Origin: Rhodospirillales bacterium
GTDB lineage: Bacteria; Pseudomonadota; Alphaproteobacteria; Kiloniellales; CBDCUY01
Direction: 5' to 3'
NCBI GenBank assembly: GCA_965222795.1
Contig: OZ244972.1
Location: 492,286 to 556,285 of the forward strand
DNA: 64,000 nucleotides
Position 1 is the first letter of the stretch. Every line of letters begins with the position of its first letter. Position numbers and translations under genes: made by a program. Shown here in pieces: positions 7,830 through 63,332 of the stretch. Under the pieces are notes generated by a model, which saw only the letters and a program-made list of their open reading frames with translations, made no database searches and was not told the origin of the DNA.

Positions 7830-7840
7830 GGGGAACCGCC

Positions 7841-8788
7841 ATGCATCCTGCCGGCTCCATTGTGCTATTCACCTCGCTTTCGGGCATCGGCTATGGCCTG
7901 CTCGCCTGGATGGGTTTGCTGGCGGCTCTGGGCGTGCTGCCGCCGGAGTCAGAGCTCGGCCTGATCGGCCTAGCTTTCGCCTTCATCCTGATCGTCATCG
8001 GCCTGGTTTCCTCGACCTTTCACCTCGGCCATCCGGAGCGTGCCTGGCGGGCGCTCAGCCAATGGCGCTCGTCTTGGCTGTCGCGCGAAGGGGTGATGGC
8101 GATCGTGACCTTCGGGCCGGCGCTGCTCTTCGCCTATGCCTGGGTGATCAACGGCAAAACCGATGGTTCGGCGGCCTTCTTCGGACTCTTAAGCGCGCTT
8201 GCAGCCGGCATCACCGTTGCCTGCACGGCGATGATCTATGCCTCCCTCAAGCCGATCCACGCCTGGCACAATTCCTGGGTGCTGCCCAATTACCTGCTGC
8301 TGGCGGCCATGGCCGGGCTGCTGTGGTGCAACCTCCTGGCCAAGCTTTTCCTGTTGCCGGGAAGCGCCATTACCTGGCTGGCGCTGATTGCCATTCTGCT
8401 TGCCTGGGCGATCAAGCACAATCACTGGCGGCACATCGACGGCTCGGCGGCCAAGGCGACGCCAGAAAGCGCCACCGGTCTCGGCAAGCTGGGCAAGGTA
8501 CGCCTGCTCGACCCGCCGCACAGCCAGAGCAACTATCTGCGCCAAGAGATGGGCTTTCAGATCGCCCGCAAGCACGCCGGCAAGCTGCGCCGCCTGACTC
8601 TAGTCTTCGCCTTCTTCCTGCCCTTGGCCTTGAGCCTCTTGCTGCTCGGTCTTAGTGGCGCCTTTGCCGCTCTCATTGCTGCTCTGGCCGCGGCCTCGGC
8701 CAGCCTGGGCATCCTGATCGAGCGCTGGCTCTTCTTCGCCGAGGCCAAGCACACGGTTACCCTCTATTACGGCGCGGAGGCGGCCTGA
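7841..8788 (+). CDS. Polytopic membrane anchor subunit (DmsC/NrfD/SoeC-like)
   Basis: 315 aa, almost entirely hydrophobic helices. Third gene of the oxidoreductase unit, starting 11 nt after the ferredoxin stop. Confidence 0.75.
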   Translation: MHPAGSIVLFTSLSGIGYGLLAWMGLLAALGVLPPESELGLIGLAFAFILIVIGLVSSTFHLGHPERAWRALSQWRSSWLSREGVMAIVTFGPALLFAYAWVINGKTDGSAAFFGLLSALAAGITVACTAMIYASLKPIHAWHNSWVLPNYLLLAAMAGLLWCNLLAKLFLLPGSAITWLALIAILLAWAIKHNHWRHIDGSAAKATPESATGLGKLGKVRLLDPPHSQSNYLRQEMGFQIARKHAGKLRRLTLVFAFFLPLALSLLLLGLSGAFAALIAALAAASASLGILIERWLFFAEAKHTVTLYYGAEAA

Positions 8789-13433: not shown

Positions 13434-14478
13434 AGTCTGTCATGTTTAGATAGAAGCATATCCTGCGTTTCTGAAGTAGTTTTGGCATTCGCTGGGTTTG
13501 ATGGTTTGGATGAGCTGGCCGATTTTTCGCCAGGTTTCTTCGATGCTTCGCTTTTGTGCCCTTCGCATCCAATGTTTGATTTTGGCGAATGTCTGTTCGA
13601 TTGGGTTCATGTCGGGCGAATAGGGCGGCAGGAACCACAGGCGCGCGCCGGCCCGCTTGATCAGGTTGCGGATGATCTTGGCTTTGTGGCTGCCCAGATT
13701 GTCCATGATGACGATGTCGCCAGGCTTCAAGCTCGGCATGAGGATCTGTTCCACATAGGCTTGGAATGCCACGCCGTTAATGGGACCGTCGAGGACACAG
13801 GGCGCCGTCAAGGCATCACAGCGCAAGGCGGCGATGAAGGTCATGGTTCGCCAATGGCCATGCGGCGCATAGCCCTTCAGGCGTTGACCTTTGGGGCTCC
13901 AGCCTCGGATCGGGGCCATGTTGGTCTTGATCCAGGTTTCATCAATGAAAACCAATCTCCTGGGATCCAGGCTTGGCATGAAGCTCTTCCAGCGTCGCCG
14001 TCTGCGCGCCACATCGGCACGTGCTTGTTCAAAGGCGAAGAGTGTTTTTTTTGAAGCTTAGTCCCTCGCGGCGCAAAAAGCTCCAAACCGCATGATGCGA
14101 GACCGACACGCCGCGCGCCGCCAGGATCGCCTGTAGGCCGCGCACCGTCAGGTGCGGCGTGGTATTTATTGCCGTGATAATAACATCACGATGGGGTGCC
14201 AGAAGGACCTTGCGGTGGCCACCCATCTTGCCCGGCAAAACGCTGCCTGTCGCGCGGTAGCGCTGATGCCACTTCACGACAGACGACACCGCAACCCCAA
14301 AACGCTCCGCAACCGACCGTGTCGGCGCACCCGAAACCACCGCATCCACAACCCGCTGTCTCAGGTCAATCGAATAAGGCTTGGCCATGCATCCTGCCTC
14401 CTATAGCCAGAAGGATGCTTGAAGCACAGTTCAGCCAAAAAAGATATCACCCCGATTCTATCAAAGCATGACCCGCTC
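13433..14478 (-). mobile_element. IS630-family insertion sequence (about 1046 bp) flanked by a TA target duplication
   Basis: Imperfect terminal inverted repeats GAGTCTGTCATGTTTAGATAGAA (13433-13455) and reverse-complement GAGCGGGTCATGCTTTGATAGAA (14456-14478), about 17/23 identical. TA at 13431-13432 and at 14479-14480. Encodes an HTH plus DDE transposase. Confidence 0.85.
13446..14388 (-). CDS. IS630-family DDE transposase, split between two frames at an A8 tract (ORF-A 14029..14388; ORF-B opens at 14057 and ends at 13446)
   Basis: ORF-A carries the HTH (..RSVAERFGVAVSSVVKWHQRY..). ORF-B carries D..D-x34-E (FIDETW; IVIMDNLGSH; PYSPDMNPIEQ). The frames meet in TTC-AAAAAAAA-C (14045-14052). 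Removing one A gives a continuous ..GLSFKKKTLFAFEQARADVARRRRRW.. protein. Confidence 0.85.
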
Positions 14479-45922: not shown

Positions 45923-46447
45923 CTATTTGTTGCGCTGGCCGAGCGACTGTCCCAGGCCCAAAAGGGCAGACCGCAGGGCCGAATCCTCGACATCGGCCAG
46001 TTTTTCCACAAGCACGGCCTCGGATTCCGGATCCAAAGATGGCTTTTGCACCTCGGGCAAGGGGCGATTGACCGGCAAGGGTCCTTGTTGAAATTTTAGG
46101 CGAATGATTCCTTGATAGCCGAGAAATCCGTTAATTCGCTCGATGATTTGCGGCTCGAGGTGCTGCAGCTCGGTCGCGAATCCTGACGCCACCCGCAACA
46201 GCAATGTGCCATCGCGCCGCTGGCGGCGATTCGCGTAGCTAACACCCCGCGGCCGACAGCGCTGCGCCAAGCGTTCCCCAACGATCTCGGTCCACCGGGT
46301 AATCAAGGCCCCTTCCGAGAAGCCGCGCTTGCCTAGAGCCCGGTTCGTCACCTTCGGCAGCATGGCAGCCAGGCTTCGGCAACCGCCCCCCTTGTCCTTA
46401 CGGGACCTTGCCTCCTCCGGCGCCAATCTGGTCGTTTCCCGGCTCAT
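45923..46447 (-). CDS. DUF721/DciA-like protein
   Basis: ..LAAMLPKVTNRALGKRGFSEGALITRWTEIVGERLAQRCRP......GTLLLRVASGFATELQHLEPQIIERINGFLGYQGIIRLKF.. matches my recollection of the DUF721 (DciA) family, which commonly neighbours mutY in alphaproteobacteria. Start chosen at 46447; the ORF extends to 46543. Confidence 0.6.
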   Translation of the reverse strand: MSRETTRLAPEEARSRKDKGGGCRSLAAMLPKVTNRALGKRGFSEGALITRWTEIVGERLAQRCRPRGVSYANRRQRRDGTLLLRVASGFATELQHLEPQIIERINGFLGYQGIIRLKFQQGPLPVNRPLPEVQKPSLDPESEAVLVEKLADVEDSALRSALLGLGQSLGQRNK

Positions 46448-46485
46448 GTCGCAGCAGGCTTTCCCGTCGATTTGCCTTGCTCTAT

Positions 46486-47577
46486 ATGAACGCCATGCGG
46501 CCTCCATCTGCAAGCCATTCCGCCGAGAAAAGTGCCGAGCCATTGCTCGCTTGGTATGACGCCCACGGGCGAGAGCTGCCCTGGCGAATCCGAGGCGCCG
46601 GCCGTCCCGATCCTTATCGGGTCTGGCTCAGCGAGATCATGTTGCAGCAGACCACGGTGGCGACGGTAAAGCCCTATTTCGAACGCTTTCTCCAAAAGTG
46701 GCCGACAGTCAATGATCTGGCGGCAGCGCCGCTCGATCAAGTTATGGCTGCCTGGGCCGGGCTCGGGTACTACGCCCGCGCCCGCAACTTGCACCGCTGC
46801 GCCCAGATCGTCAGTACTGACTACGGCGGCAGGTTTCCTGAAGACGAAACCGGCCTAAAGGCACTGCCGGGCGTCGGCAACTATACTGCCGCCGCCATCG
46901 CCGCCATCGCCTTCGACCAGGTCGCCACCGTGGTTGACGGCAATGTGGAGCGGGTGGTCGCCCGCCTCTTCGCCGTCGAGACACCCCTGCCGAAGGCCAA
47001 GCCGGAGATCAGTCGGCTCGCCGCCACGCTGACACCGCAAGAACGCGCCGGCGACTATGCGCAAGCGATGATGGACCTGGGAGCAACGATCTGCACGGCC
47101 GCTCGGCCCAAGTGCCTCCTCTGCCCACTCAAGGAGGGATGCCTGGCTCACGCGCGCGGCTTGGCGGCGGAACTACCGCGCCGCACGCCCAAAGCGGCCA
47201 GGCCGATCCGCCGTGCGGTCGCCTTTTGGCTGGAAGGCCGCAACAAGGAGGTATTGCTGCGCCGGCGTCCGCCCAAAGGCCTCCTGGGCGGCATGATGGA
47301 GGTACCATCGACTACGTGGCGCGAAGCACCCTGGAGTCCCGAGGAGGCTGTTGAATTTGCACCCGTTGAAATCGACTGGCAGCCACTACCCGGTGTCGTG
47401 CGGCATACCTTCACCCATTTTCACTTCGAGATTGCGGTTTGGACCGGTAGATCGTCGGACGCCGTTCCTGCCCGCGACGCAGAGATGTGGTGTCCAATCG
47501 ATCGGCTAGCCGAACAGGCCCTACCGACTGTCATGCGCAAGATCGCCCGCCACGCGATGAGTGCGGATGAAATCTGA
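46486..47577 (+). CDS. mutY: A/G-specific adenine DNA glycosylase
   Basis: ..LLAWYDAHGRELPWR....PYRVWLSEIMLQQTTV..., HhH-GPD (LPGVGNYTAAAIAAIAF), the FeS cluster loop C..C..C...C (CTAARPKCLLCPLKEGC), and a NUDIX-like C-terminal domain. Confidence 0.9.
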   Translation: MNAMRPPSASHSAEKSAEPLLAWYDAHGRELPWRIRGAGRPDPYRVWLSEIMLQQTTVATVKPYFERFLQKWPTVNDLAAAPLDQVMAAWAGLGYYARARNLHRCAQIVSTDYGGRFPEDETGLKALPGVGNYTAAAIAAIAFDQVATVVDGNVERVVARLFAVETPLPKAKPEISRLAATLTPQERAGDYAQAMMDLGATICTAARPKCLLCPLKEGCLAHARGLAAELPRRTPKAARPIRRAVAFWLEGRNKEVLLRRRPPKGLLGGMMEVPSTTWREAPWSPEEAVEFAPVEIDWQPLPGVVRHTFTHFHFEIAVWTGRSSDAVPARDAEMWCPIDRLAEQALPTVMRKIARHAMSADEI

Positions 47578-47653
47578 AGCCAACGCGTGGGTTACCGCCC
47601 TGACCGGCGCTGCGGCTGCGCGCTACTTTGCGTATTGAAATAGGAACAGCGGC

Positions 47654-48800
<1,147 letters not shown>

Positions 48801-48810
48801 AAAGGTTTAT

Positions 48811-49443
48811 TCAGTTATCCTCAAGACGCTGGCGGACCGGCGCAAAGGACCGCCGGTGGTGTGGGCTGACGCCCAGGCGGGCGAGACCCTCACGATGTTC
48901 GCGCGTCCCATAGCCACGGTTTCGTTCCCAGCCATAGCCTGGGTTTTCTTCGGCTAGGGTTGTCATTCTTCGGTCGCGGCTCTCCTTGGCGATGATCGAG
49001 GCGGCCGCAATGGAAAGCGAAAGACCATCCCCCTTGATAATCGGTACGGCAAGGCAATCGAGCGACGGCGCCCGGTTGCCGTCGACCAACGCGACATCTG
49101 GGCGAATCGGCAAAGCCTCGATGGCCCGGCGCATGGCCAGCAGGCTCGCCTGCAAGATGTTCAACTCGTCGATCTCGGTGACACTGGCCTCGCCCAACCC
49201 GACCTCGGCCCTAGCCCATATGACCGCCGCCAACTGCTCCCGGCTGCGCGCCGTCAGCCGCTTTGAGTCATCTAGTCTATGGAGAATCTCCGCCGGCAGG
49301 AGGGCCGGGGTCAAGTGGACGGCGGCGGCAACAACGGGGCCGGCCCAAGGTCCCCTCCCGGCCTCGTCAACGCCCACAACCCTTCGCCCACCGGCAGCGC
49401 CATGGGCATCTTCGTAGGAAAAATTTGGCACGCGCTTCAGCAA
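48811..49443 (-). CDS. rnhB: Ribonuclease HII
   Basis: 210 aa. ..VGVDEAGRGPWAGPVVAAAV.., ..DDSKRLT...RE.., ..ASIIAKESRDR.M.. Confidence 0.9.
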   Translation of the reverse strand: MLKRVPNFSYEDAHGAAGGRRVVGVDEAGRGPWAGPVVAAAVHLTPALLPAEILHRLDDSKRLTARSREQLAAVIWARAEVGLGEASVTEIDELNILQASLLAMRRAIEALPIRPDVALVDGNRAPSLDCLAVPIIKGDGLSLSIAAASIIAKESRDRRMTTLAEENPGYGWERNRGYGTREHREGLARLGVSPHHRRSFAPVRQRLEDN

Positions 49444-49452
49444 GCAACTCGG

Positions 49453-50880
49453 TTAGTGTCGCTTGGGTCTATCGCTTCCCGGGTAGCGGCGCAAGCGGTT
49501 CGCGCCGCCGAGATGATCCCCCGGTTGGGTAAAGTTTCCGGGCGGCCCGCCACGCTGGCGAGGGATGATGTCCCCCATCCAGCGGGTGGCATTGTTGGCC
49601 ATGGAGATCATCGCGCTTTCCGCCTTCATCGTTGATCGGAAAAGAGCCGATGCCTCTGGTCCGATGGTCAGGCGTATGGTCTCGCTGCCGGAGGTGACCC
49701 CCAAGAGATCGACCCGGTGGAGACGGCGCGCCGCCTCCATCCAGAAGGGGCTGCCAACAAGCGACAGCACAGTGATGGCGACGATGAGGCGGTGCCCTTC
49801 ATCGGTCAGGACACCGGAGGCGAGACCGAGGGCTGCCAGAATGAAGGAAAATTCGCCCAATTGCGCCAACATGACGCCGGATTGAAAGGCGCGCGGCCAG
49901 GTTTCACCGAGAATTCGGATCAAACCCACATTCAGTGCCGTCTTGAAGAAGGCGACGAAGGTCACGATCGCCATTACGGTCCAAAAATTACTTATTATGT
50001 ACTTGAAGTCGATCAACAAGCCGATGGAAAGGAAAAACACCATCAAGAGGATAGACTGGATGGGGCCGGTGTGTTGGATCATGGTCTGCCGGCTGGTTGA
50101 GTTACCGATCACCAAGCCGGCCAAAAAGGCCCCGTAAGCCGCTGACAGACCAAGCAAGCCAGAAACCGCTGCGGCGCCAAAGCAGAAGACCAGACCAGCA
50201 AGGGGCGTCAGGTCATGGTTCTTGCCGACGATGGTCGCAAACGGCAACTTTAGGCGTTTGCGCCGACTGAGGTAAATGATCAGCAAGCCGAGGAAAAGCA
50301 CCGACAGGCCGGCCTTGATGATGGCGTCAAGGCCGAGGCCGCCTTCGCCCCCAAGGGAGCCCACAATCAGCATCATTGGTACGACGGCCAGGTCCTGCGC
50401 GATCAGCACGCCGATGGTGATCTGGCCCACTCTCGTCCTGAGTTCGCCCACCTCTTCCAGCATCTTGACCGCAACCGCCGTACTGGAAAGCGCCACCACG
50501 AACCCGACGAGGACGATTAACGCCAATGGCCAGTCAAGGTAGTAGCCAAGCGCGCCCATGGCACCCAAACCGACGAGGATTTGCAATGCCGTGGTGATGA
50601 GGGCTATTCGCCAGACCTCCTTGATGCCGCGCAGCGACAGCTCCATGCCGATGAGGAACAGCAGCATCAGAACGCCGAGCTCGGCCAAGGTTTGCACCAT
50701 GGCGCGGTTTTCCACCATGCCGAGCCCGGTCGGCCCCAGTAAGGCACCAGCAAGGATGTAGCCGAGGACCACGGGTTGGCGCAAACGCGCCATGATGACG
50801 CCGCAACCCAAGGCGGCCAGCGCCACGATCGCAAGTCCGGTTAAATCACCGCCGTGTTCATGCATTGCCGATGCCCACAA
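49453..50880 (-). CDS. Cation:proton antiporter (CPA2/Kef-like membrane domain)
   Basis: 475 aa with about 12 hydrophobic helices. N-terminal ..LRQPVVLGYILAGALLGPTGLG.. is typical of the Na+/H+ exchanger family. Short soluble tail. Confidence 0.8.
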   Translation of the reverse strand: MWASAMHEHGGDLTGLAIVALAALGCGVIMARLRQPVVLGYILAGALLGPTGLGMVENRAMVQTLAELGVLMLLFLIGMELSLRGIKEVWRIALITTALQILVGLGAMGALGYYLDWPLALIVLVGFVVALSSTAVAVKMLEEVGELRTRVGQITIGVLIAQDLAVVPMMLIVGSLGGEGGLGLDAIIKAGLSVLFLGLLIIYLSRRKRLKLPFATIVGKNHDLTPLAGLVFCFGAAAVSGLLGLSAAYGAFLAGLVIGNSTSRQTMIQHTGPIQSILLMVFFLSIGLLIDFKYIISNFWTVMAIVTFVAFFKTALNVGLIRILGETWPRAFQSGVMLAQLGEFSFILAALGLASGVLTDEGHRLIVAITVLSLVGSPFWMEAARRLHRVDLLGVTSGSETIRLTIGPEASALFRSTMKAESAMISMANNATRWMGDIIPRQRGGPPGNFTQPGDHLGGANRLRRYPGSDRPKRH

Positions 50881-51092
50881 TATTCCCGTCTATGGATGCC
50901 ACGCGGCCCTTCATATTCCGCTAAGATCACCGAAGGAGGGTGCATTTTCCCATGTGGATTGTTCCGCCCGATGACGGCGAAGGAATCCCACATGTCTTAT
51001 TCCAGCCTGCAAATAGACCAGCAATAGGATGACGAAATCACATTATAGCTAAACTGTGGTCTTCCGTGGGCATTACAAGGCGAACTTCGCCC

Positions 51093-52169
51093 TCACAACA
51101 ACTGCAGCTGCTGTGGCTGTCCGGCGGGTGGCCGAAAGGCATCTGTATCAAGTTTCTCGCGATCCTTGTTCAGTCCCAACCGACGGCAAGCCAACTCAAA
51201 GCGACGGGCGAGCGCCTCAGCATAAATGCCCTGGCCTCTCTGCCGGCGGCCAAAGGTCGGGTCGTAAAGCGCCCCGCCGCGCATCTGGCGCATCAGACTG
51301 AGGACATGTTGAGCCTTGCCCGGATAGTGGGATTTCAGCCATTCGGTGAAGAGCTGCTTTATCTCCAGTGGCAGCCGCAGCACAACATAGCCGGCAGTGA
51401 CTGCCCCGGCCTTCGCCGCCTCGTGTAGTATAGTCTCCAGCTCGCAGTCATTTAGAGCCGGGATCATCGGCGCGGCCAAGACCCCCACCGGCACGCCGGC
51501 GGCAGCAAGCCCCCTCACCGTCTCCAGCCGCAGGCCAGGAGCGCTGGCCCTCGGTTCCATGCTTCGCGCCAACTCTTTGTCGAAGGTAGTGATGGAGACC
51601 ATGACCTGCGCCAGCCCCTCCCTTCCCATGGGCGCAAGGATATCGAGATCACGCAGCACCAATTTGGACTTGGTCACGATACACACGGGATGGCGGCATT
51701 CATGCAGAACCTCCAAAATCGATCGGGTGATGGCAAGCCGGCGCTCGATTGGCTGATAGGGATCGGTGTTCGCCCCGAGCGCCAGCAAATCGGCGCGGTA
51801 TCCTGGCTTTGCCAGCTCCTTCCTTAGAAGCCGCGCCGCATCCGGCTTGGCAAATAGCTTGGTCTCGAAATCCAATCCCGGAGACAACCCAAGCCAGGCG
51901 TGCGTGGGCCGGGCAAAACAATAAATGCAGCCATGCTCGCAGCCGCGATAGGGATTGATGGAGCGATCGAAGGGTACATCGGGCGAGGTGTTACGGGCGA
52001 TAATGCTGCGGCTATGATCGATCGCGATCGTGGTCTTTTCGCCCGTTTCGTCGTCTTGCAACCACCAGCCGTCGTCAAAGCTTTCACGCTTTTCCGCCTC
52101 GTAGCGGCCGGTCGGATTGATCGTTGCCCCGCGACCTTTGACTCTTGATCTTTCCCCGGCCTGGTCCAT
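51093..52169 (-). CDS. Radical SAM protein, PA0069/SplB-like family
   Basis: 358 aa. N-terminal ..KGRGATINPTGRYE.. Cluster motif CEHGCIYC (Cx3Cx2C). ..ALGANTDPYQPIE.. Confidence 0.8.
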   Translation of the reverse strand: MDQAGERSRVKGRGATINPTGRYEAEKRESFDDGWWLQDDETGEKTTIAIDHSRSIIARNTSPDVPFDRSINPYRGCEHGCIYCFARPTHAWLGLSPGLDFETKLFAKPDAARLLRKELAKPGYRADLLALGANTDPYQPIERRLAITRSILEVLHECRHPVCIVTKSKLVLRDLDILAPMGREGLAQVMVSITTFDKELARSMEPRASAPGLRLETVRGLAAAGVPVGVLAAPMIPALNDCELETILHEAAKAGAVTAGYVVLRLPLEIKQLFTEWLKSHYPGKAQHVLSLMRQMRGGALYDPTFGRRQRGQGIYAEALARRFELACRRLGLNKDREKLDTDAFRPPAGQPQQLQLL

Positions 52170-52230
52170 GAACCAAGTCTAGGGCAATCAATCGGAACAA
52201 ATCAAGAACAAAAAGTGAGGTCAAAGCCGA

Positions 52231-53313
52231 TCAAAACAGGTCATAGAGGGATGGAGAATCCAGCCATTCGCCGCGCATGCGCCTTAGGCTCGCATGACTG
52301 AGATAGTCGTCGACCCTACCGGCGACGTGATTGATCACCGCGGCATCGCTGTTCTCGGCCGACCAATCCTCAGTGCTTTGCCTCTCGTGCTTGTTTTCGA
52401 GACTGGATTGCCGGTGCAGCACCTGCCACTTGGCGCACCAGGTAATCGCCCTCAAGAACAGGAGCCGCCGCATCGGCACCAGCCATGGCCGCAGCTGCTC
52501 CGCCCGGGCCTTTGGTAGGGAACGCAGATAATGCCGATAAAATGAAGCAACCTCTGCCAACGACAACTCGGCATAGCTATCCGGATCCCAGGTCGTGGAG
52601 GAGTAGACGCTGCTGTGCGCTAGGTCTATGCCGGCGGAACCGTATAGCGCCTTCTCTAGGTCGACAATGAACGCCCGGCCGCTCTGGTCGATGACGAAGT
52701 TGGCCGGATGCGTGTCGGTTAGCACCAGGCAAATCGGCTGATCACTATTACAGTTATCTGACAAGAACTCTCGGGCCCACGTCAGTTCGGTGTCGATTTC
52801 CCCCCGTGCAGCGGTGCTAAGATTCGCGGCATCGAGAAAGGCAGCCTGCTGTGCGATCTCCTCCATGATGCCGGCAACCGGATCGCGGTGATCGGCGAGC
52901 GGTGCTCGGGCCTCTGGCTCCGGCACCGCCATGCCATGCACCGCCGCCATACATTCGGCCAAGGCCGGCAGATCGCCCGGAAGTTCGGGCGCACGACCGC
53001 GAACGTGGTCGACCACCAGGGCCCCCATGGGAACCGACGGCCCCGGTCGAATGACACCATGAAGGCGCGGCGCAAAACCGCTGTCGCTCACCCGGCGAAA
53101 ACAGGATTCTTGATAGATGAGATTGTCGCGTGCCGACAGCGCGAACTGACTCTGCTTAGGAACCCGCAGCAATTGGTCCGTGCCGAGGATGGCAACATGG
53201 TCATGAGCAAGGCCGCGGAATGGCAAGGGCTGCAGGTCTTCCGGCCCCACTCCGGAGTAGGCTGGGATCTGAGTCAGTTCTTTGTGCAGGGCTTCGAGCA
53301 ATTCTTGATGCAT
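52231..53313 (-). CDS. Phosphotransferase-family (APH / choline-kinase-like) protein
   Basis: 360 aa. Kinase-like catalytic loop ..LVLTDTHPANFVID..GRAFIVDLEKA.. (Brenner-type H.N...D followed by D.E). Confidence 0.65.
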   Translation of the reverse strand: MHQELLEALHKELTQIPAYSGVGPEDLQPLPFRGLAHDHVAILGTDQLLRVPKQSQFALSARDNLIYQESCFRRVSDSGFAPRLHGVIRPGPSVPMGALVVDHVRGRAPELPGDLPALAECMAAVHGMAVPEPEARAPLADHRDPVAGIMEEIAQQAAFLDAANLSTAARGEIDTELTWAREFLSDNCNSDQPICLVLTDTHPANFVIDQSGRAFIVDLEKALYGSAGIDLAHSSVYSSTTWDPDSYAELSLAEVASFYRHYLRSLPKARAEQLRPWLVPMRRLLFLRAITWCAKWQVLHRQSSLENKHERQSTEDWSAENSDAAVINHVAGRVDDYLSHASLRRMRGEWLDSPSLYDLF

Positions 53314-53390
53314 GGCAGGTGACGCCTAGCACAAATGCCGGCCCACTTCCTAGCTCGCGGTAAACCGCGGTCCTGTGATATCACCGCGCC

Positions 53391-54083
53391 ATGGAAGGCC
53401 CCGACCTCAGCATCGTGATTCCGGCACTCAACGCGGCCGAAACTCTGCCGACAACGTTGGCAGCCCTGGCTAGCCCTGGTGGTGAAAATTTCACTACCGA
53501 AATCATCCTCGTCGACGGTAGCTCCACAGACGCTACCGTGGCGTTGGCCGCAAGCCGGGGAGTCACGGTAATCCCCAGCTTAGCGGGACGGGGTCTGCAG
53601 CTCCAGGCAGGCGCAAAGGCCGCGAAGGCTCCTTGGTTGCTGTTCCTGCACGCCGATACACGGCTTGCCGATGGCTGGGTCGATGCGGCACGCGATTTTC
53701 AAGGTGTCGACAAAGCCGAAGATAAGGCCGCGGTCTTCACCCTCCAACTGGACGACGGGGACCCACGCGCCCGCCGGATCGAGCGTTTGGCCGCCTGGCG
53801 GGCTCGTCGCCTCGGGCTGCCCTATGGCGACCAAGGACTTCTTATCTCGCGAGGTTTTTACGACCGCGTGGGCGGCTATCGGTCATTGCCCTTAATGGAG
53901 GATGTAGATCTGGTTCGGCGGATCGGCAGCGAGCGCATAGTCACGCTACCCGTCGCGGCCATTACTTCTGCAAAACGCTATCGCCGAGATGGTTGGTGGC
54001 TGCGACCAATGCGCAACCTCTGCGTCCTCGTCCTCTACTTCCTGGGCGTTCCCAGCACATTGCTGCAGCGGCTCTACGGGTGA
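53391..54083 (+). CDS. GT2-type glycosyltransferase; resembles the TIGR04283 family (database label 'arsenosugar biosynthesis / rSAM-selenodomain-associated')
   Basis: 230 aa. ..LSIVIPALNAAETLPTTL..EIILVDGSSTDATV...GRGLQLQAGAKAA.APWLLFLHADTRL.. matches the family pattern as I recall it. Confidence 0.7.
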   Translation: MEGPDLSIVIPALNAAETLPTTLAALASPGGENFTTEIILVDGSSTDATVALAASRGVTVIPSLAGRGLQLQAGAKAAKAPWLLFLHADTRLADGWVDAARDFQGVDKAEDKAAVFTLQLDDGDPRARRIERLAAWRARRLGLPYGDQGLLISRGFYDRVGGYRSLPLMEDVDLVRRIGSERIVTLPVAAITSAKRYRRDGWWLRPMRNLCVLVLYFLGVPSTLLQRLYG

Positions 54084-54688
54084 GGCAGCGTCGAAACCTG
54101 GTCATCTTCCTGCGTCAGCCGCTCCTTGGCACGGTGAAGCGCCGCCTCAGCCGCGACCTCGGCACGACCGAGGCACTACGTCTTTACCGGCAAATGACCA
54201 CAATCTTGATTGGCCGTTTGGGGCGAGATCGGCGCTGGCAGACTTGGCTCGCGGTGACACCGGGGCCGGCAGCCCGACAAGCACAGCGTATTTGGCGCAC
54301 CAGCCTTCCTAGCCTACCGCAGCCGCGGGGCGACCTGGGCACCCGCATGCTACTGTGCCTGCGCCGATTCCCAAGGGAGCGGACCATCATTGTCGGCTCG
54401 GACATTCCCGGTATCACTGCCGGCCACGTCATGGCAGCCTTCCATGCCCTTGACGCTGCCGACTGGGTCCTGGGGCCAGCCGAGGACGGTGGCTACTGGC
54501 TGATCGGCACGCGCCAACAACCCGTCGGCTTCGACCCTTTTCTGGATGTGCGGTGGTCCAGCTCGGCCTCCCTTAGCGATACCCTCGCTAACCTCGGCGG
54601 CCGTCGCGTCGCCCTAGTCGATAAATTACGGGATTTGGATACGCTGGCCGATCTGAAACATCTGACCACAAGTTTGGAGAGGCACTAG
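54080..54688 (+). CDS. DUF2064 / TIGR04282-like nucleotidyl-transferase-fold protein
   Basis: GTG at 54080 overlaps the upstream TGA (GTGA). ..LVIFLRQPLLGTVKRRL...LG...A..LY......PRGDLGTRM...IIVGSDIPGIT...AF.AL...DWVLGPAEDGGYWLIG....W.S.......L.. are the signature blocks of DUF2064. The ORF nominally opens at 53993 inside the upstream gene. Confidence 0.7.
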   Translation: MRQRRNLVIFLRQPLLGTVKRRLSRDLGTTEALRLYRQMTTILIGRLGRDRRWQTWLAVTPGPAARQAQRIWRTSLPSLPQPRGDLGTRMLLCLRRFPRERTIIVGSDIPGITAGHVMAAFHALDAADWVLGPAEDGGYWLIGTRQQPVGFDPFLDVRWSSSASLSDTLANLGGRRVALVDKLRDLDTLADLKHLTTSLERH

Positions 54689-55230
54689 CCCGAAGTGGCC
54701 AAGTGCTCCTTCAAGCGCGGCATCAGCTCCACCAAATTGCAGGGGCGATGGCGATAGTCCAACTGGTATCGCAAGATCTCCTGCCAACCGTCCTTGCAGG
54801 CGCCGGGAGAGCCTGGCAGGGCGAAGAGATAGGTACCATCGGCAACACCGCCCAGCGCCCGGCTCTGGATCGTCGACGTGCCGACCTTCTGGTAGCTGAT
54901 CCAGCGGAACAACTCGCCAAAACCTTCGATTTCCTTTTCAAGCACCCGGGCAAAGGCCTCCGGCGTGACATCCCTGCCGGTTACCCCTGTGCCGCCGGTG
55001 GTGATCACCACATCGACAGAAGGATCGGCAACCAGTGCCTGCAGCGCCGTCTCGATCGCATCCGCATCGTCGCGAATGATGTCACGCTTGACCACCTGGT
55101 GGCCGTCGCCGGTGATCATCTCCTGCAGGCGGTCACCGGACCTGTCCTCGGCCAGACTGCGAGTGTCCGAAATCGTCAAGACGGCGATGTTAACAGGGAG
55201 AAATGATCGAGATTCGTCAATTCCGGGCAT
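54685..55230 (-). CDS. moaB: Molybdenum cofactor biosynthesis protein B
   Basis: ..IAVLTISDTRS..EDRSGD.L......GH.VV.......D...I........VDVVITTGGTGVTGRDVTPEA......KEIEGFGELFR.ISY..VGTSTIQSRA.GGVA....LFALPGSPGACKDGW.EIL..QLD.R.RPCN is near-colinear with E. coli MoaB. Start at 55230; the ORF extends to 55302. Confidence 0.9.
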   Translation of the reverse strand: MPGIDESRSFLPVNIAVLTISDTRSLAEDRSGDRLQEMITGDGHQVVKRDIIRDDADAIETALQALVADPSVDVVITTGGTGVTGRDVTPEAFARVLEKEIEGFGELFRWISYQKVGTSTIQSRALGGVADGTYLFALPGSPGACKDGWQEILRYQLDYRHRPCNLVELMPRLKEHLATSG

Positions 55231-57106
55231 TCTGCACCACCTCGCTCGGCCCAAAATCCAGCCGCTCGTAGCTCGGCCACTCCCCGGAGGCCAGAGCAAC
55301 AAGAGAAGCAGGGGGCTGACCGAGGCGATGGCGATATACCCATAGATTGGTCAGGACGCGCTCGATGAAAAGGCGTGTTTCGCGTGACGGCAAACTTTCT
55401 ATGAAAAGCAGCGGGTCATTGTCATAGCTCGTCTTGCGATCCCATTTGCCGAGATTACCGGGCCCGCCGTTGTAGGCGGCTGCCAGGCGAAAGAGATCGC
55501 CTTGCACGGCTTCATGCTGCAGAAGATAGCTGACATAGCGTTGGCCGAGATCAATATTCAATTGTGGATCGAAGAGCCGGCGCCGTTCGTTGCCGCGAAA
55601 GCGCTCGCCGGCAACATAACTGGCTGTCCTCGGCATCAACTGCATCAGCCCTCTTGCACCGTCCTTGCTCTTGGCTCGCGGATTGAAGCCGGATTCCTGC
55701 CGCATGAGAGCATAGACAAGGGCCCGGTCCACGAGAAAACCTTCCTCCGGCTGCCAAGGCGGGATCGGATATAGGCCCGCGATCAACGAATCAGGACTAC
55801 CGAGTTCTCTGTCCGAGTCCTTTAGGTAGCGGGCGAATTTGAAGGCGAGCTGGGGCATCTGCGCACCATCAGCGACTGCCAGGAGGCCTTCGACGATCGT
55901 CTGGTCATGCCAGGGACCAAGGCGCAACAATTCCTCCTCCGCGCGCTGACGTTGGTCGGCTTGCAGAAGGGCCAGCGCCCGCGATCCGCCGGACTGCTGC
56001 AGCACAGCAGCAATGGCGCCGTCGTTCACGGGCCGGTCGGCAAACACAAAGTCGGTCACTTGACCCAGCGCTTCGCGCGCCAGAAGGCCGTAGAACGTCA
56101 AAGGATAGTCCGCGGCAATGCGAAGCCAACGGCTCATTTCCGTCGGACGTTTGAGTTTGAGGTTGGCACGGGCAGCCCAATAGGCACCGGCTGCTAGGTT
56201 CCAATCCGAAACTTTGGCCGACGAGGCTAAGGCTTGAAAATGCTCGGCCGCTTGCTCCGTTTCGCCCATGCGCCAAGCCGCCAGACCCGCCGTCCAATGG
56301 GCAATGGGCACATGCTCCCCAGAGCGCGAAGCGGCTCTGCTTGCAAGATCATAAGCTTTCTCGTCGTTGCCATAGTGATACCAGCCAGCGGCAACGCTGG
56401 CTGTTGCCTGGTCGCGCTCCACCTGGTCGAGCAGGCGCTTAGCGGACTTGCCGGCAATCAACTTTTCCGCTGCACTGAGGCGCGTCCGCAAAACCTTGCG
56501 GCGAATATCCTGCTTCAGGCGAGCTGCGCTGCGACGCCCCTTCTTTCCAAGACGCTTGGTCGACTGGTAGGTCTCGCCGCCCCGATTGACGGCTTCCTGG
56601 TTCAGCAGGCCATCTGTAATTTCCGGTTCCTTTGGACCCAAATGGTTTCTCGGTCGCCGCTTAATCGCCAGTTTATGGATCCGTTTTGCCTGCGGATGAT
56701 CGGCGTAATCGGCCATCCAGGCCTTAAGTTCTTTGTAAGTCGAACGGTAGGCAGTGGGGTGCAAGTAGCGCTGGGCCAAGACATGGCCCATCAGCCGTTG
56801 ATCTTGCAGGCTGGCGATCAAGCGGTCGGCCGCCTTGATGTTACCTTCCTCTTGCTGGGCAAAGATATCTCGATAGAGCTGCGCGTCTTCCGGTGTCAGG
56901 ATACGCGGCAAACTACCGGGTGTTTGCGCCACTCGTGGCATCAACGCGGCGGTCTCGATGCGTCGCGCCGTGTCTTCTCCTGCAGCAACGGGACCAAGCA
57001 GCACAGGCCCCAAGATAGCAACCGCAATCAGGCTACTCAGTGTTTTCACTCGCAAGATATACAAGAGGGACCCCCAAAAAATTCGGTTGATAAGGGTAGT
57101 CAACAC
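55217..57106 (-). CDS. Soluble lytic murein transglycosylase (Slt70-like)
   Basis: 629 aa with a signal/anchor, a superhelical N-terminal region, and the C-terminal SLT domain (..LMRQESGFNPRAKSKDGARGLMQLMPRTA..AAYNGGPGN..). Confidence 0.85.
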   Translation of the reverse strand: MLTTLINRIFWGSLLYILRVKTLSSLIAVAILGPVLLGPVAAGEDTARRIETAALMPRVAQTPGSLPRILTPEDAQLYRDIFAQQEEGNIKAADRLIASLQDQRLMGHVLAQRYLHPTAYRSTYKELKAWMADYADHPQAKRIHKLAIKRRPRNHLGPKEPEITDGLLNQEAVNRGGETYQSTKRLGKKGRRSAARLKQDIRRKVLRTRLSAAEKLIAGKSAKRLLDQVERDQATASVAAGWYHYGNDEKAYDLASRAASRSGEHVPIAHWTAGLAAWRMGETEQAAEHFQALASSAKVSDWNLAAGAYWAARANLKLKRPTEMSRWLRIAADYPLTFYGLLAREALGQVTDFVFADRPVNDGAIAAVLQQSGGSRALALLQADQRQRAEEELLRLGPWHDQTIVEGLLAVADGAQMPQLAFKFARYLKDSDRELGSPDSLIAGLYPIPPWQPEEGFLVDRALVYALMRQESGFNPRAKSKDGARGLMQLMPRTASYVAGERFRGNERRRLFDPQLNIDLGQRYVSYLLQHEAVQGDLFRLAAAYNGGPGNLGKWDRKTSYDNDPLLFIESLPSRETRLFIERVLTNLWVYRHRLGQPPASLVALASGEWPSYERLDFGPSEVVQNARN

Positions 57107-57168
57107 AACTGATGATGGCCATATAGGCTTGCCGATTCCTGGTTTATTTTGCGTTAAACGTCAGCCAG

Positions 57169-58062
57169 TTAAGACATTGATAATGGATTTTCGCCGCGGG
57201 CGATCGCTTGTCGGAAGGCAAGGAAATCGCGCCAGGCCAGACGTTTTTGTGCCGGCTGCCGCAAAAGATACGCCGGGTGAAGCGTCGCTAGCGCCGGGAT
57301 CGGCTTGGCAAGCCCGGGCTGATCATAGGCCTCCCAGCGGCCACGCAGACGCAAGATCCCCTGGGTGCGGCCCAGCAACGTCTTTGCTGAAATACCGCCG
57401 ATCAACAGCAGGTAGTCGGGCTGAATGATCGCGATCTGACGCTGCATGAAGGGCAGGCAAACGGCAATTTCCTGTGCTGTCGGTGTCCGATTGCCCGGTG
57501 GCCGCCAGTAGATGACGTTGGTGATGTGGACTTGTTGCCGATCAAGGCCGATGGCCGCCAGCATGCGGTCGAGCAACTTGCCGCTACGCCCGACAAAGGG
57601 CAGGCCTTGGCGGTCCTCTTCCGGACCGGGTGCCTCGCCGATGATCATGTAGCGGGCTTCGGGATTGCCATCGGCAAAACAAAGACGGGTGGCGGTCGCC
57701 TTCAAGGGACAACCATCAAAGGCCTCTAACACCTGCTTGAGATCAGCGATGCTTTGGGCCGCCGCGGCCAGTTCACTTGCCGTAGCAGCCGCGCTCCGGG
57801 GTGATGCGAGAGTTCCGGGCTGAGGTTGCCAAAACGATGGCTGAGGCGCGACCGGCGCGACCATGGGATCAGCGACCATGGGATCAGTCGGCGGCGAATT
57901 GGGTGTTGGTGGCTGTGGCGAAGTGACCTGTTCTTCGATTCGGGGCTTGGGATCGCGCAGGCGGTTCCGCGGTTCCCCACCGATCGGCTCGTCGACGCCC
58001 GCTGCAATCTGCCATTCCAGCATTGCCAGCAACTTTCGTGCGTCATCGCATTCTTTCGCCAT
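57169..58062 (-). CDS. Family 4 uracil-DNA glycosylase with an N-terminal extension
   Basis: C-terminal 180 aa: ..[30 protein letters not shown]....N...WRPPGNR.P......C.PF...Q......L..LGG.....L.......RG.W......[10 protein letters not shown]. The N-terminal ~115 aa is Pro-rich. Confidence 0.85.
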
Positions 58063-58135
58063 AGCCCGCTGTTATCGCCTGTATTATGGTGCCGGTGCAA
58101 CCAGGCAATAGCGATCGCACGGAGATAGGGACGAG

Positions 58136-59788
58136 ATGGAACGCGAATCCATGGAATACGATGTCGTCATTGTGGGTGCCGGGCCGGCCGGTCTGGCCGC
58201 GGCAATTCGATTGCGGCAACTGAGCCTGGAGGCCGGGAAAGAGGTCAGCGTCTGTGTGCTGGAGAAGGGGTCCGAGGTTGGGGCCCACATCTTTTCTGGT
58301 GCGGTCTTCGAGCCGCGCCCGCTCAATGAGCTAGTTCCGGATTGGCAGGAAAAAGGGGCGCCATTGAACACCCCGGTCAGTGCCGAGAAGTTCCTCATGC
58401 TGAGCGAAAGCAAGGCACTGTCCGTGCCTATATGGGCCCTGCCGTCGGAAATGCACAACCACGGTAACTATATCATTTCATTGGGCAATCTTTGTCGCTG
58501 GCTGGCCCAGCAAGCAGAGGAGCTCGAGGTCGAGATCTATCCCGGCTTTGCTGCTGTCGAGGTACTTTATCACGACGACGGCCGGGTCAAGGGCGTGGCC
58601 ACGAGCGACATGGGCATCAACAGGCAAGGTGAACAAAAAGACACCTTCGAGCCGGGCATCGAATTGCACGCCCGCTATACTTTCTTCGCCGAGGGCTGTC
58701 GTGGCTCTCTCACCAAGTCTCTCTTCGAGCGCTTTGGCCTGCGTCAGGACTGCGACCCACAGACTTACGGCATCGGCATCAAAGAACTCTGGCAGCTTGA
58801 CCCGGCCCAGCATAACCAGGGCCTGGTCATGCATACGGCCGGCTGGCCCATGGATCAGCGCACCTGGGGTGGCTCGTTTGTCTATCACCTCGAAGACAAC
58901 CAGGCCTATGTCGGCTATGTGGTGGGTTTGGACTACCAAAACCCACACCTCTCCCCCTTCGAAGAAATGCAGCGCTTCAAGACCCATCCGGTCATCAGCA
59001 GTCAGCTACAGGGCGGCAAGCGCTTAGCTTACGGCGCCCGCGCCCTAAACGAAGGCGGTGTCCAATCGATCCCTAAGTTGGTTTTTCCAGGCGGCGCTCT
59101 AATTGGCTGCGCGGCGGGCTTCCTCAATGTCCCAAAGATCAAAGGCAGCCACAACGCGATGAAAACCGGCATGCTGGCCGCCGAGGCAGCTTTCCAGGCC
59201 CTGGGCCAAGAGACGAGTGCCCCGCCAGTCCTCGACAGCTATCCCGAAAAACTTCGCAGTTCCTGGGTTTATCAGGAGCTTCACAGGGCCCGAAATTTTC
59301 GGCCAGCTTTTGCCCGCTGGGGGCTTTGGGGCGGCATGGCTTACGGTGGCTTCGATCTCAAAGTCTTGGGCGGCAAATCGCCTTGGACCTTCCATCACAA
59401 GCATGAAGATCACACCTGCCTCAAGCCAAAGGACAAGATGCCGAAGATCACCTATCCTAAGCCAGACGGCACGTTGACCTTCGACCGCCTGTCATCGGTG
59501 TTTCTTTCCAACACCAACCATGAAGAAGACCAGCCTGTCCACCTTCGTTTGAAAGACGACACCATCCCCATCAACCACAACCTCGAACTCTACGATGCAC
59601 CGGAACAACGGTTCTGCCCGGCCGGGGTTTACGAAATCGTGCGCGATGACGATGGAAGTAACCCAAGGCTACAGATCAACGCGCAGAACTGTGTCCATTG
59701 CAAGACCTGCGACATCAAGGACCCCTTGCAGAATATCAATTGGGTTCCACCCGAAGGAGGCGGCGGCCCCAATTACCCGAACATGTAG
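58136..59788 (+). CDS. Electron-transfer flavoprotein:ubiquinone oxidoreductase
   Basis: 550 aa. FAD motif [16 protein letters not shown]-terminal 4Fe-4S ferredoxin-like ..CPAGVYE....[30 protein letters not shown]. Confidence 0.95.
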
Positions 59789-62738: not shown

Positions 62739-63332
62739 ATGAGCCACAATACTTGGATTCACCGCATCGTTCGCAAAGCCGTGCGTCCCCTGGTTGGTAC
62801 TTCGGTTACGCCCAATCACATCACCACGCTGCGTTTGCTCAGCGGCTTGGCTGCTGCCGCCGCCCTATCGGAAGGCACGGATACCTGGCGCAACGCCGGT
62901 GCCGGCATATTTCTGCTATCCTTTTTTCTCGACCGGGCAGACGGTGAATTGGCGCGGCAAGGTGGTATCTCGACCCCTTTGGGGCACAAGTACGACCTCA
63001 TTTCTGATGGTGTTTGCAATGCATTGGCCTTTTTTGGCCTAGGCATAGGCTTGACGGCTGGCTTTTTCGGCAACTGGGCCATCGCCATGGGCATAATCGC
63101 TTCGATTTCAGTCGCGTCCGTATTTTGGCTGGTCAATCGTGTCGAGGCATCGAAAGGAGAAAGGGCGGCCGAGCTTTCCAGCAAGGCCGGGTTCGATGCC
63201 GATGACGGCATGTTGGCCTTGCCGATTCTGATCTGGTTGGGGCAAGCGGATTGGCTATTGATGGCGGCCTGTATCGGCGCGCCGATTTTCGCTGCCTTCA
63301 TGGTGATCAAGATGCGCGACTTAGTTGCCTGA
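62739..63332 (+). CDS. CDP-alcohol phosphatidyltransferase-family membrane protein
   Basis: 197 aa and polytopic. The complete signature D-x2-D-G-x2-A-R...G-x3-D-x3-D is visible as DRADGELAR....GHKYDLISD. Confidence 0.8.
   Translation: MSHNTWIHRIVRKAVRPLVGTSVTPNHITTLRLLSGLAAAAALSEGTDTWRNAGAGIFLLSFFLDRADGELARQGGISTPLGHKYDLISDGVCNALAFFGLGIGLTAGFFGNWAIAMGIIASISVASVFWLVNRVEASKGERAAELSSKAGFDADDGMLALPILIWLGQADWLLMAACIGAPIFAAFMVIKMRDLVA

Follow-up and report, generated by a model that had tools for sequence, protein, structure and literature searches.

A putative SOS-type radical SAM gene beside a predicted kinase, nucleotidyl-transferase, and glycosyltransferase module in a Rhodospirillales bacterium

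We analyzed a 64,000-nucleotide stretch of DNA from a Rhodospirillales bacterium (assembly GCA_965222795.1, contig OZ244972.1, positions 492,286 to 556,285), named here the window, whose own numbering is used for all its positions. It carries four genes in two divergent groups: a radical S-adenosylmethionine (SAM) gene and a kinase-like gene on the minus strand, and on the plus strand a pair composed of a family 2 glycosyltransferase (GT2) gene and a DUF2064 gene. Open reading frames (ORFs) and motifs were rechecked directly in the window sequence, and the coordinates, spacers, peptide motifs, stop/start overlap, and shared stop given in an original prediction, made from the sequence alone, were all reproduced. 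The features are the following:

51093–52169, minus strand: radical SAM gene of the PA0069 family (SplB or "photolyase-like" type), 358 aa; NF033668 and Pfam Radical_SAM
52195–52209, minus strand: LexA (SOS) box motif GTTCTTGATTTGTTC, inside the 61-bp spacer between the kinase and radical SAM genes
52231–53313, minus strand: predicted kinase of the aminoglycoside phosphotransferase (APH)/choline-kinase fold, from a family without a name, 360 aa; Pfam PF01636
53314–53390, both directions: divergent control region between the kinase and GT2 genes, 77 bp
53391–54083, plus strand: GT2 (GT-A) transferase gene, TIGR04283, 230 aa; Pfam Glycos_transf_2
54080–54688, plus strand: DUF2064/TIGR04282 gene, 202 aa, GTG start at 54080
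54685–55230, minus strand: moaB, convergent boundary gene outside the unit; TIGR02667, 238.8 bits

The 61-bp spacer runs from the kinase stop to the radical SAM start. The GT2 gene and the DUF2064 gene next to it form one operon and are translationally coupled: the TGA stop of the former and the GTG start of the latter overlap by 4 nt as GTGA (54080–54083), an arrangement that recurs in L085–L087 and L089–L091 of the loci described below. At the distal end, the CTAG at 54685–54688 contains both the DUF2064 stop and the convergent moaB stop; this sharing is not recurrent (the two genes are 2 nt apart in L090) and is incidental. The four proteins are predicted identically, with lengths of 360, 202, 230, and 358 aa, in a public protein collection, all from one contig of 6,044,551 bp. 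They are flanked by MoaB on one side and by a MagA-like CPA2 antiporter on the other (49453–50880, minus strand), whose best NCBIfam match is "iron transporter MagA" with 440 bits against a cut-off of 700 and which is found in many, not all, orthologous blocks.

A scan of positions 50800–55400 gave zero matches to E. coli-type (sigma-70) promoters and two terminator-like sites, both within the radical SAM coding sequence and fewer than the shuffled expectation. In the 77-bp divergent region, a GTGCTA-type element lies about 15 nt 5' of the kinase start. The GT2 start is preceded at the same distance by a related element, which reads GTGATA in the window and GTGCTA in most orthologous loci; the spacer reads TAGCAC...GTGCTA on one strand, a pattern that recurs across orthologous loci. 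These elements are probably Caulobacter-type −10 boxes of two promoters placed back to back, whose leaders would be very short or lacking altogether.

The family assignments of the original prediction (PA0069-type radical SAM, TIGR04283, TIGR04282, and APH-fold kinase) were borne out by hidden Markov model (HMM) scans. The radical SAM protein scores 523.5 bits against the PA0069 model NF033668, for a cut-off of 360, and belongs to that family; its CxxxCxxC cluster motif is CEHGCIYC and KGRGATINPTGRYE is also present. PA0069 is one of 15 SOS genes in Pseudomonas aeruginosa, where it is termed "photolyase-like", and Rv2578c has a LexA chromatin immunoprecipitation peak and RecA-dependent induction. 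The published SOS box of Caulobacter crescentus is GTTCN7GTTC. The box at 52195–52209 is a perfect GTTC-N7-GTTC on the radical SAM strand, located 25 nt 5' of the radical SAM ATG (5' end at −40), and it is the single match in a scan of the whole window for GAAC-N7-GAAC.

This box is conserved. An exact copy lies 5' of the radical SAM orthologue, at the same place, in 41 of 51 orthologous genome loci; of the other ten, seven have a box with a single mismatch in that position, and the motif found there is more degenerate in the last three. A second, independent sample gave an exact box in 29 of 36 loci. Across both samples, the loci without an exact copy mostly have a near-match (one or two mismatches) in the corresponding place. 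In background sequence the box occurs 74 times in 1.31 Mb, a rate of 0.008 per 280-bp window on one strand. The box stays with the radical SAM gene where insertions part that gene from the kinase gene. When the kinase is missing and the radical SAM gene directly faces the pair, the box is about 25 nt from the true radical SAM start and about 58 nt from that of GT2, which assigns it to the radical SAM promoter and not to the GT2 promoter. Like the SplB-like, SOS-induced PA0069/Rv2578c family, the window gene thus passes the model cut-off and carries a lineage-appropriate LexA operator, conserved in its promoter region as in the alphaproteobacterial SOS regulon. Given the box and the SOS/LexA status of PA0069 and Rv2578c, the gene is a putative SOS-regulon member with its own LexA-controlled promoter; LexA control is predicted here solely from the box.

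The kinase protein matches the Pfam APH domain PF01636 with 42.2 bits (gathering threshold 23.2) and contains TDTHPANFVID and VDLE, which carry the D-x-x-x-x-N loop and the D-x-E motif of APH/choline-kinase-like enzymes. Among 19 homologues there is no variation in the catalytic residues D200 and N205 or in the metal-binding D218-x-E220. Its AlphaFold2 (AF2) model (pLDDT 79.6, pTM 0.81) has the bilobal fold, and the top Foldseek matches are choline/ethanolamine kinases, APH(2''), LicA, NahK, and FN3K, at a TM-score (TM) of about 0.5 and 12–16% identity; for choline kinases and APH(2'') the match has a probability of 1.0 at that TM. No NCBIfam family was reached at E ≤ 0.01, including MtnK, AmgK, NahK, LicA, ThiK, and homoserine kinase II, and the family profile found no relative by sequence in the PDB. 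From these motifs and this model, we predict an active small-molecule kinase of a family without a name.

The GT2 protein scores 213.4 bits against TIGR04283 (cut-off 182) over model positions 1–221 of 221. Among solved structures, the GT-A fucosyltransferase WrtF (PDB 9omh, E 1.4e-7) is closest to it in sequence; weaker HMM matches include MftF and GpgS, and the usual N-terminal nucleotide-binding half is present. A hydrophobic C-terminal segment, WWLRPMRNLCVLVLYFLGVP, is conserved and suggests that the enzyme acts at the membrane surface. The DUF2064 protein passes TIGR04282 (142.3 bits vs 134) and PF09837 (98 vs 25.8), and gives a weak full-length match, below membership, to the CofC/FbiD model TIGR03552 (26 bits vs a cut-off of 105). 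Its AF2 model (pLDDT 93.2) superimposes in Foldseek first on 3cgx (TM 0.88) and then on the CofC/FbiD structures 7p97, 2i5e, and 6bwg/6bwh (TM 0.69–0.72), among them the 3-phosphoglycerate guanylyltransferase 7p97 and Rv2983 with phosphoenolpyruvate (PEP). Later matches are KdsB, NeuA, IspD, TarI, MobA-like proteins, and GlmU, and no glycosyltransferase is present among the top 50. When the DUF2064 profile is aligned with CofC 7p97, the K-x-R-L, G-x-D-x-P, and C-terminal D-x-D motifs are in register. The model and the structural matches agree with the CofC/MobA-type nucleotidyl-transferase fold that had been proposed for this protein; most probably, it nucleotidylates a phosphate ester by CofC-like chemistry outside the CofC family, and on this structural ground its database name "glycosyltransferase" is doubtful.

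A few loci depart from the coupled arrangement of the pair. In L153, a gene for a Tat-signal metallo-beta-lactamase-fold protein (4878–5750) lies between GT2 and DUF2064 and breaks the translational coupling; L099, L125, and L147 have the same gap of about 1.1 kb, the gene content having been read in L153 only. In L109, a stand-alone DUF2064 gene is flanked by a GNAT gene and RNase R, an uninformative context.

An alignment of kinase homologues gave 80 loci from different species (L001–L080), with kinase identities of 38–63%, from Kiloniellales, Rhodovibrionaceae, Oceanibaculum, Tistlia, Algihabitans, Nisaea, SAR116, Stellaceae, and others, which were compared by tblastn with twelve window proteins. 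In high-GC relatives, genes were called with a caller based on GC content at third codon positions (GC3), which is error-prone on moaB, and the key genes were verified by ORF lists and HMMs. Nearly all loci show one and the same block: MutY–CcrM–RNase HII (RnhB)–(CPA2)–radical SAM–(kinase)<>GT2–DUF2064–MoaB–soluble lytic transglycosylase (SLT)–uracil-DNA glycosylase (UDG)<>electron-transfer flavoprotein–quinone oxidoreductase (ETF-QO), where <> stands for divergence and brackets for genes that are not always present. This conserved alphaproteobacterial gene order occupies 46408–59788 of the window and is seen across L001–L171. Because all co-occurrence of the four genes falls inside this block, raw co-occurrence overstates their functional linkage.

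Among the 66 kinase loci with enough upstream sequence, the kinase has a divergent GT2 gene directly beside it in 47, a displaced one in 7, and none in 12; ten of the latter belong to a kinase clade at 42–45% identity, and in two the DUF2064 gene directly abuts the kinase gene. These two, L045 and L046, are related to L037 (uncounted, being short upstream), and in all three the kinase is directly divergent from DUF2064 with no GT2 between them; as read from gene order, this is a clade in which GT2 was lost or moved while kinase and DUF2064 were kept together. In the 57 loci with both kinase and pair, the radical SAM gene is adjacent in 26, displaced by 0.4–5 kb in 16, and absent in 15. Both junctions flanking the kinase are insertion hot spots. 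The genes inserted there are mutually unrelated (amidohydrolase, PQQ-dehydrogenase, RND efflux, ArsR-ArsC, and others) and, their contents being heterogeneous, they were dropped as a clue to the pathway.

The triad formed by kinase, GT2, and DUF2064 also occurs outside the block: four loci from three lineages (Virgifigura deserti L018, L022, and Rhodovibrio L030/L051) carry it without any other block gene, and the radical SAM gene is missing from all of these relocated triads. As the divergent GT2–DUF2064<>kinase arrangement is kept while all other block genes are gone, the triad has moved as a unit without the radical SAM gene. A connection with MoaB and the molybdenum cofactor was rejected, as the DUF2064–moaB adjacency is often broken (for example in L005, L017, L032, and L039) and absent in the relocated loci.

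A second set of neighborhoods brings in an importer. A YnjB-type ATP-binding cassette (ABC) binding protein (NF008633, 550–573 bits) adjoins the relocated triads of L018 and L030/L051. In Competibacteraceae (L058/60/61), the kinase is followed by YnjB and then by a fused two-domain YnjC-like permease, with no pair. Conversely, L117 (2612–10068) carries the pair inside an ABC importer operon, in the order TetR, an unclassified radical SAM protein with a SPASM-like tail and no NCBIfam model, YnjB (472 bits), GT2 (TIGR04283, 209 bits), DUF2064 (TIGR04282, 147 bits), YnjC-like permease, YnjD-like ATPase, and an HDAC-family deacetylase, consecutive genes overlapping. The window itself has no YnjB, YnjC, or YnjD homologue within its 64 kb. 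Since kinase and pair each lie independently beside YnjB/YnjBCD, and given the three joint relocations, the two probably belong to one pathway. These links and relocations, with two further components that an alternative cluster of the pair shares with an E. coli ynjBCD operon (both described below), are the chief ground for this view. We found no functional study of DUF2064, TIGR04282, TIGR04283, or ynjBCD in the full-text collection searched.

We therefore favor, with a confidence that we put at about even, a reading in which the locus consists of two units juxtaposed by history. The first would be the radical SAM gene, induced by DNA damage as part of the SOS response and repressed by LexA at a promoter of its own within the 61-bp spacer; its position beside the pair would reflect their common membership of an ancient alphaproteobacterial housekeeping block. 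The second would be an activation-transfer module. In it, the kinase would phosphorylate a hydroxyl of a small compound, imported in some genomes probably by the YnjBCD-type ABC transporter; DUF2064 would then join the phospho-compound to a nucleoside monophosphate drawn from a nucleoside triphosphate, probably GTP, to give a nucleoside diphosphate (NDP)-linked intermediate; and GT2 would move the activated group onto an acceptor, probably on the cytoplasmic side of the membrane. As an entry step, the kinase would be optional: many relatives keep the pair without it, and others combine the pair with different partners (a metallophosphoesterase-radical SAM fusion, a MerA-like flavoprotein, DedA, and a YnjA-like AhpD protein). 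Gene structure, family membership, folds, the LexA box with its conservation, and the neighborhood patterns are shown by the analysis, and from them we infer the enzymatic activities, the order of the steps, the membrane localization, and LexA regulation in this organism. The succession of kinase, nucleotidyl-transferase, and GT2 put forward in the original prediction is consistent with the relocations and with the YnjB/YnjBCD links; the kinase is better taken as an accessory step, and the radical SAM gene is best explained outside the pathway.

The neighborhoods centered on the pair supply evidence against this reading. An exact look-up of the gene context of the window DUF2064 gave no record. 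DUF2064 homologues at 48–57% identity were examined in their annotated gene context, and a metagenome scan gave 80 further loci, of which 37 could be classified (adjacent GT2 and at least 500 bp upstream). Of these, 24 have the PA0069-type radical SAM gene as the upstream neighbor of the pair, 3 have the kinase, 3 the other radical SAM cluster described below, 1 YnjB, 2 RNase HII or CPA2, and 4 no tested family. The kinase is thus a minority neighbor of the pair, at about 8% of the sample, against 24 of 37 for the radical SAM gene. The pair faces the radical SAM gene without a kinase in L085, L087, L089 (Acetobacteraceae), L090, and L091 (Kiloniellaceae metagenome-assembled genome), where the two sides share a divergent spacer of about 100 bp; in L086, a 356-aa gene of the size and position of the kinase, with no Pfam match on record, lies between the radical SAM and GT2 genes. 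A rough neighbor-joining tree of DUF2064, built without support values, has the kinase-less loci interspersed among the kinase-bearing ones. The tree implies that the kinase was gained or lost repeatedly and that the pair does not split into distinct paralogous subfamilies; it makes the kinase an accessory and not an obligatory step, and it means that the pair works without an adjacent kinase. Several further points weigh on the same side. The kinase clade at 42–45% identity has neither the pair nor YnjB nearby, the YnjB associations amount to only four independent cases, the fold matches of the kinase are generic (TM about 0.5) and do not indicate a substrate, and the adjacency of radical SAM gene and pair persists in L149 and L152, whose flanks hold no other block gene, which leaves room for a functional radical SAM link.

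The 42–45% clade is represented by L064, L065, L067, L068, L070, L072–L075, and L077, from Defluviicoccus-like Alphaproteobacteria. Its neighbors are a family III CoA-transferase, an enoyl-CoA hydratase, and a flavin adenine dinucleotide (FAD) mono-oxygenase, with no link to the pair, and its kinases may have a different substrate.

These observations give some weight to an explanation by synteny alone, in which the pair would be self-contained and draw its phospho-substrate from central metabolism, as CofC/FbiD does with PEP, 2-phospholactate, or 3-phosphoglycerate, the kinase and radical SAM genes being unrelated to it. It would account for the confinement of the four-gene co-occurrence to one conserved block, for the commonness of the pair without the kinase, and for the existence of kinases without the pair, and the nearest structural relatives of DUF2064 do use phospho-acids of central metabolism. 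The three relocations that retain the divergent triad after the loss of all other block genes speak against it, however, as does the presence of kinase and pair, independently of each other, beside the same uncommon YnjB/YnjBCD family, and we consider it unlikely.

The prominence of the radical SAM gene in the same sample raises a different explanation, in which all four genes would cooperate: the radical SAM enzyme would act alongside the pair, whether or not the kinase takes part, in one damage-induced process, for example a modification or repair through a nucleotide-linked intermediate. The radical SAM gene is indeed the commonest immediate neighbor of the pair, shares the divergent spacer with it in kinase-less loci, and remains adjacent in L149 and L152. 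Yet the LexA box sits on the radical SAM promoter and not on that of GT2; the radical SAM gene is missing or displaced in 31 of the 57 triad loci and missing from L112, L116, the relocated triads, and the clusters with the other radical SAM fusion; and the PA0069/Rv2578c family takes its name from organisms in which it is a lone SOS gene. We hold such cooperation to be distinctly improbable. Of the radical SAM linkage, which the original prediction left as possibly functional, the adjacency stands, and a LexA-type SOS gene placed there by synteny is the better explanation than membership of the pathway. As for the linkage of the four genes at large, the kinase follows the pair in three relocations but adjoins it in only 3 of 37 pair-centered loci, and the radical SAM gene is absent from the relocations.

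A further partner of the pair bears on its database name. TIGR04282 and TIGR04283 were defined computationally, in association with ArsS (TIGR04167), as "arsenosugar biosynthesis glycosyltransferases", a name now spread over thousands of genome annotations. In Reyranella, Magnetospirillum, and Ferrovibrio, the pair lies in an operon encoding a metallophosphoesterase-radical SAM fusion, a MerA-like flavoprotein, DedA/VTT, GT2, DUF2064, and an AhpD-like protein; the DUF2064 proteins of these clusters form one clade nested among the kinase-linked loci. The radical SAM part of the fusions has more than 8000 homologues in a profile search of the protein collection. The fusion scores 54 bits against TIGR04167 (cut-off 300) and 98 against the Rv1681 family (cut-off 380), and on these scores we rejected the designation of these operons as canonical ArsS clusters. 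None of the proteins specific to these clusters is found in the window or in L001–L080.

An arsenosugar pathway, in which the pair would work with a distal ArsS/ArsM system and the kinase would either be irrelevant or phosphorylate 5-deoxy-5-(dimethylarsinoyl)ribose in the manner of methylthioribose (MTR) kinase, can be weighed on this basis. The family names point to it, ArsS is a proven radical SAM adenosyl-arsenic enzyme, and an ArsR-ArsC fusion gene lies between kinase and radical SAM gene in three loci. MTR kinase belongs to the same fold class as the window kinase. Against these stand the absence of any homologue of the radical SAM fusion, used as probe, from the 64-kb window and the 80 kinase loci, the failure of the radical SAM partner beside close relatives of the pair to qualify as ArsS, the lack of any ArsS-level gene beside a sampled pair, and the lack of a match between the kinase and the MtnK models. 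We regard this pathway as very unlikely here. The window radical SAM neighbor is of the PA0069 type and not ArsS, and no gene at the TIGR04167 level was seen in the window or beside any sampled pair, the search of this genome being confined to the 64-kb window; the original prediction was right that no ArsS- or ArsM-type partner is visible in the window. The arsenosugar label is unsupported for this pair. The window proteins do resemble the TIGR04282/TIGR04283 system in passing its cut-offs and in being adjacent and coupled, but they differ from it in lacking an ArsS-level partner, in the window and in sampled relatives alike, in that close relatives have as radical SAM partner a metallophosphoesterase fusion that does not reach the ArsS cut-off, and in that DUF2064 looks like a nucleotidyl-transferase and not a glycosyltransferase. 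The nature of DUF2064 and the lack of an ArsS partner suggest that the name is wrong on two counts for this lineage.

Two side observations concern arsenic. The ArsR-ArsC fusion, whose ArsC part is a low-molecular-weight protein tyrosine phosphatase (LMW-PTP)-type arsenate reductase, is found in L028 (14178–15101, minus strand), L041 (6045), and L042 (8694), three Rhodovibrionaceae/Rhodospirillales loci; it is the sole arsenic-related gene near any triad and could be a coincidence. In the window, positions 4207–8788 (plus strand) encode a molybdopterin oxidoreductase trio made of a 962-aa catalytic subunit, a 4Fe-4S subunit, and an NrfD-like membrane subunit. The catalytic subunit scores best against PhsA (218 bits vs a cut-off of 694) and reaches no equivalog model; an arsenic link through this cluster was rejected, as it is PhsA/Psr-like and far under the ArrA cut-off.

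The favored module of kinase, DUF2064, and GT2 can be compared with characterized activation systems. In the assembly of the F420 side chain, CofC/FbiD is a 2-phospholactate, PEP, or 3-phosphoglycerate guanylyltransferase that precedes the transferase CofD/FbiA; DUF2064 shares its fold (TM 0.69–0.72 to 7p97, 2i5e, and 6bwg) and its K-x-R-L, G-x-D-x-P, and D-x-D motifs, and the logic is common to both: a nucleotide is attached to a phospho-compound, and a dedicated transferase takes over the product. Here, however, DUF2064 falls under the CofC cut-off (26 vs 105 bits), its partner is a GT2/GT-A protein and not CofD, no F420 genes lie nearby, and a kinase is associated, whereas F420 systems have no dedicated kinase. 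The LicB/LicA/LicC/LicD system for phosphocholine decoration and the AmgK/MurU system for N-acetylmuramic acid recycling have the same order of steps and the same kinase fold class; the structural matches of the window kinase include LicA, choline kinases, and NahK, and an importer is associated in some genomes here. These systems differ in that the window kinase has no NCBIfam or PDB match at the sequence level, that the nucleotidyl-transferase is CofC-like and not LicC- or MurU-like, and that the importer is a YnjBCD-type ABC transporter.

The importer and the AhpD-like and DedA proteins also have counterparts in E. coli K-12, where ydjX (DedA)–ydjY–ydjZ (DedA)–ynjA (AhpD-like)–ynjB–ynjC–ynjD (L172, NC_000913.3, 1833401–1841403) form a single FNR-activated operon of unknown function. 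The binding proteins beside kinase or pair are 43–48% identical to YnjB by BLASTP and have YnjC- and YnjD-like partners. In Reyranella, Magnetospirillum, and Ferrovibrio, the AhpD-like protein encoded after DUF2064 is 46–50% identical to YnjA over its full length (E about 1e-60), and the DedA protein of the same clusters is about 30% identical to YdjX and YdjZ. The E. coli operon differs in having no kinase, GT2, or DUF2064 annotated in or beside it, and the window has no ydj or ynj genes within its 64 kb. In E. coli, ynjD is followed by ynjE (sulfurtransferase) and ynjF (CDP-alcohol phosphatidyltransferase). The window encodes a 197-aa CDP-alcohol phosphatidyltransferase at 62739–63332 (plus strand), 8 kb downstream of the pair; it is below the cut-off of the archaetidylinositol-phosphate and phosphatidylinositol-phosphate (PIP) synthase models and its match to YnjF is weak (32% over 95 aa, E 4.5e-5).

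The pair, the kinase, YnjBCD, the YnjA-like AhpD protein, DedA, and the metallophosphoesterase-radical SAM fusion recur as interchangeable modules, which links them to the orphan E. coli operon. A broader proposal, which we advance tentatively and think somewhat doubtful, is that a widespread modular pathway comprises kinase, DUF2064, and GT2 as well as the YnjBCD importer, YnjA-like AhpD, DedA/YdjX-type proteins, the MerA-like flavoprotein, and the metallophosphoesterase-radical SAM fusion. A small molecule, taken up or made, would undergo CofC-like NDP activation and be passed to a membrane-associated acceptor; arsenosugars would be at most a special case, and E. coli ydjXYZ-ynjABCD a reduced version. 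Neither the kinase-linked form nor the module network seems to have been described so far.

Elsewhere in the window, two successive ORFs of 119 and 188 aa at 13446–14388 (minus strand) resemble, by eye, the halves of an IS630-type transposase and possibly mark an insertion sequence in an otherwise housekeeping region.

For the radical SAM gene, the conserved box adds the PA0069 type to the predicted SOS regulon of many Alphaproteobacteria and supports a DNA-damage role for an uncharacterized SplB-like family. For the pair, the kinase- and YnjBCD-linked variants offer experimental handles, namely a binding protein for ligand screening and cultured strains that carry the triad, such as Rhodovibrio sodomensis DSM 9895, Pelagibius litoralis DSM 21314, Tistlia consotensis, and Oceanibaculum pacificum; the triad is also present in the complete genome of Algihabitans albus (CP159482). 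Such handles would reach a conserved pathway and, by association, the orphan ydjXYZ-ynjABCD operon of E. coli.

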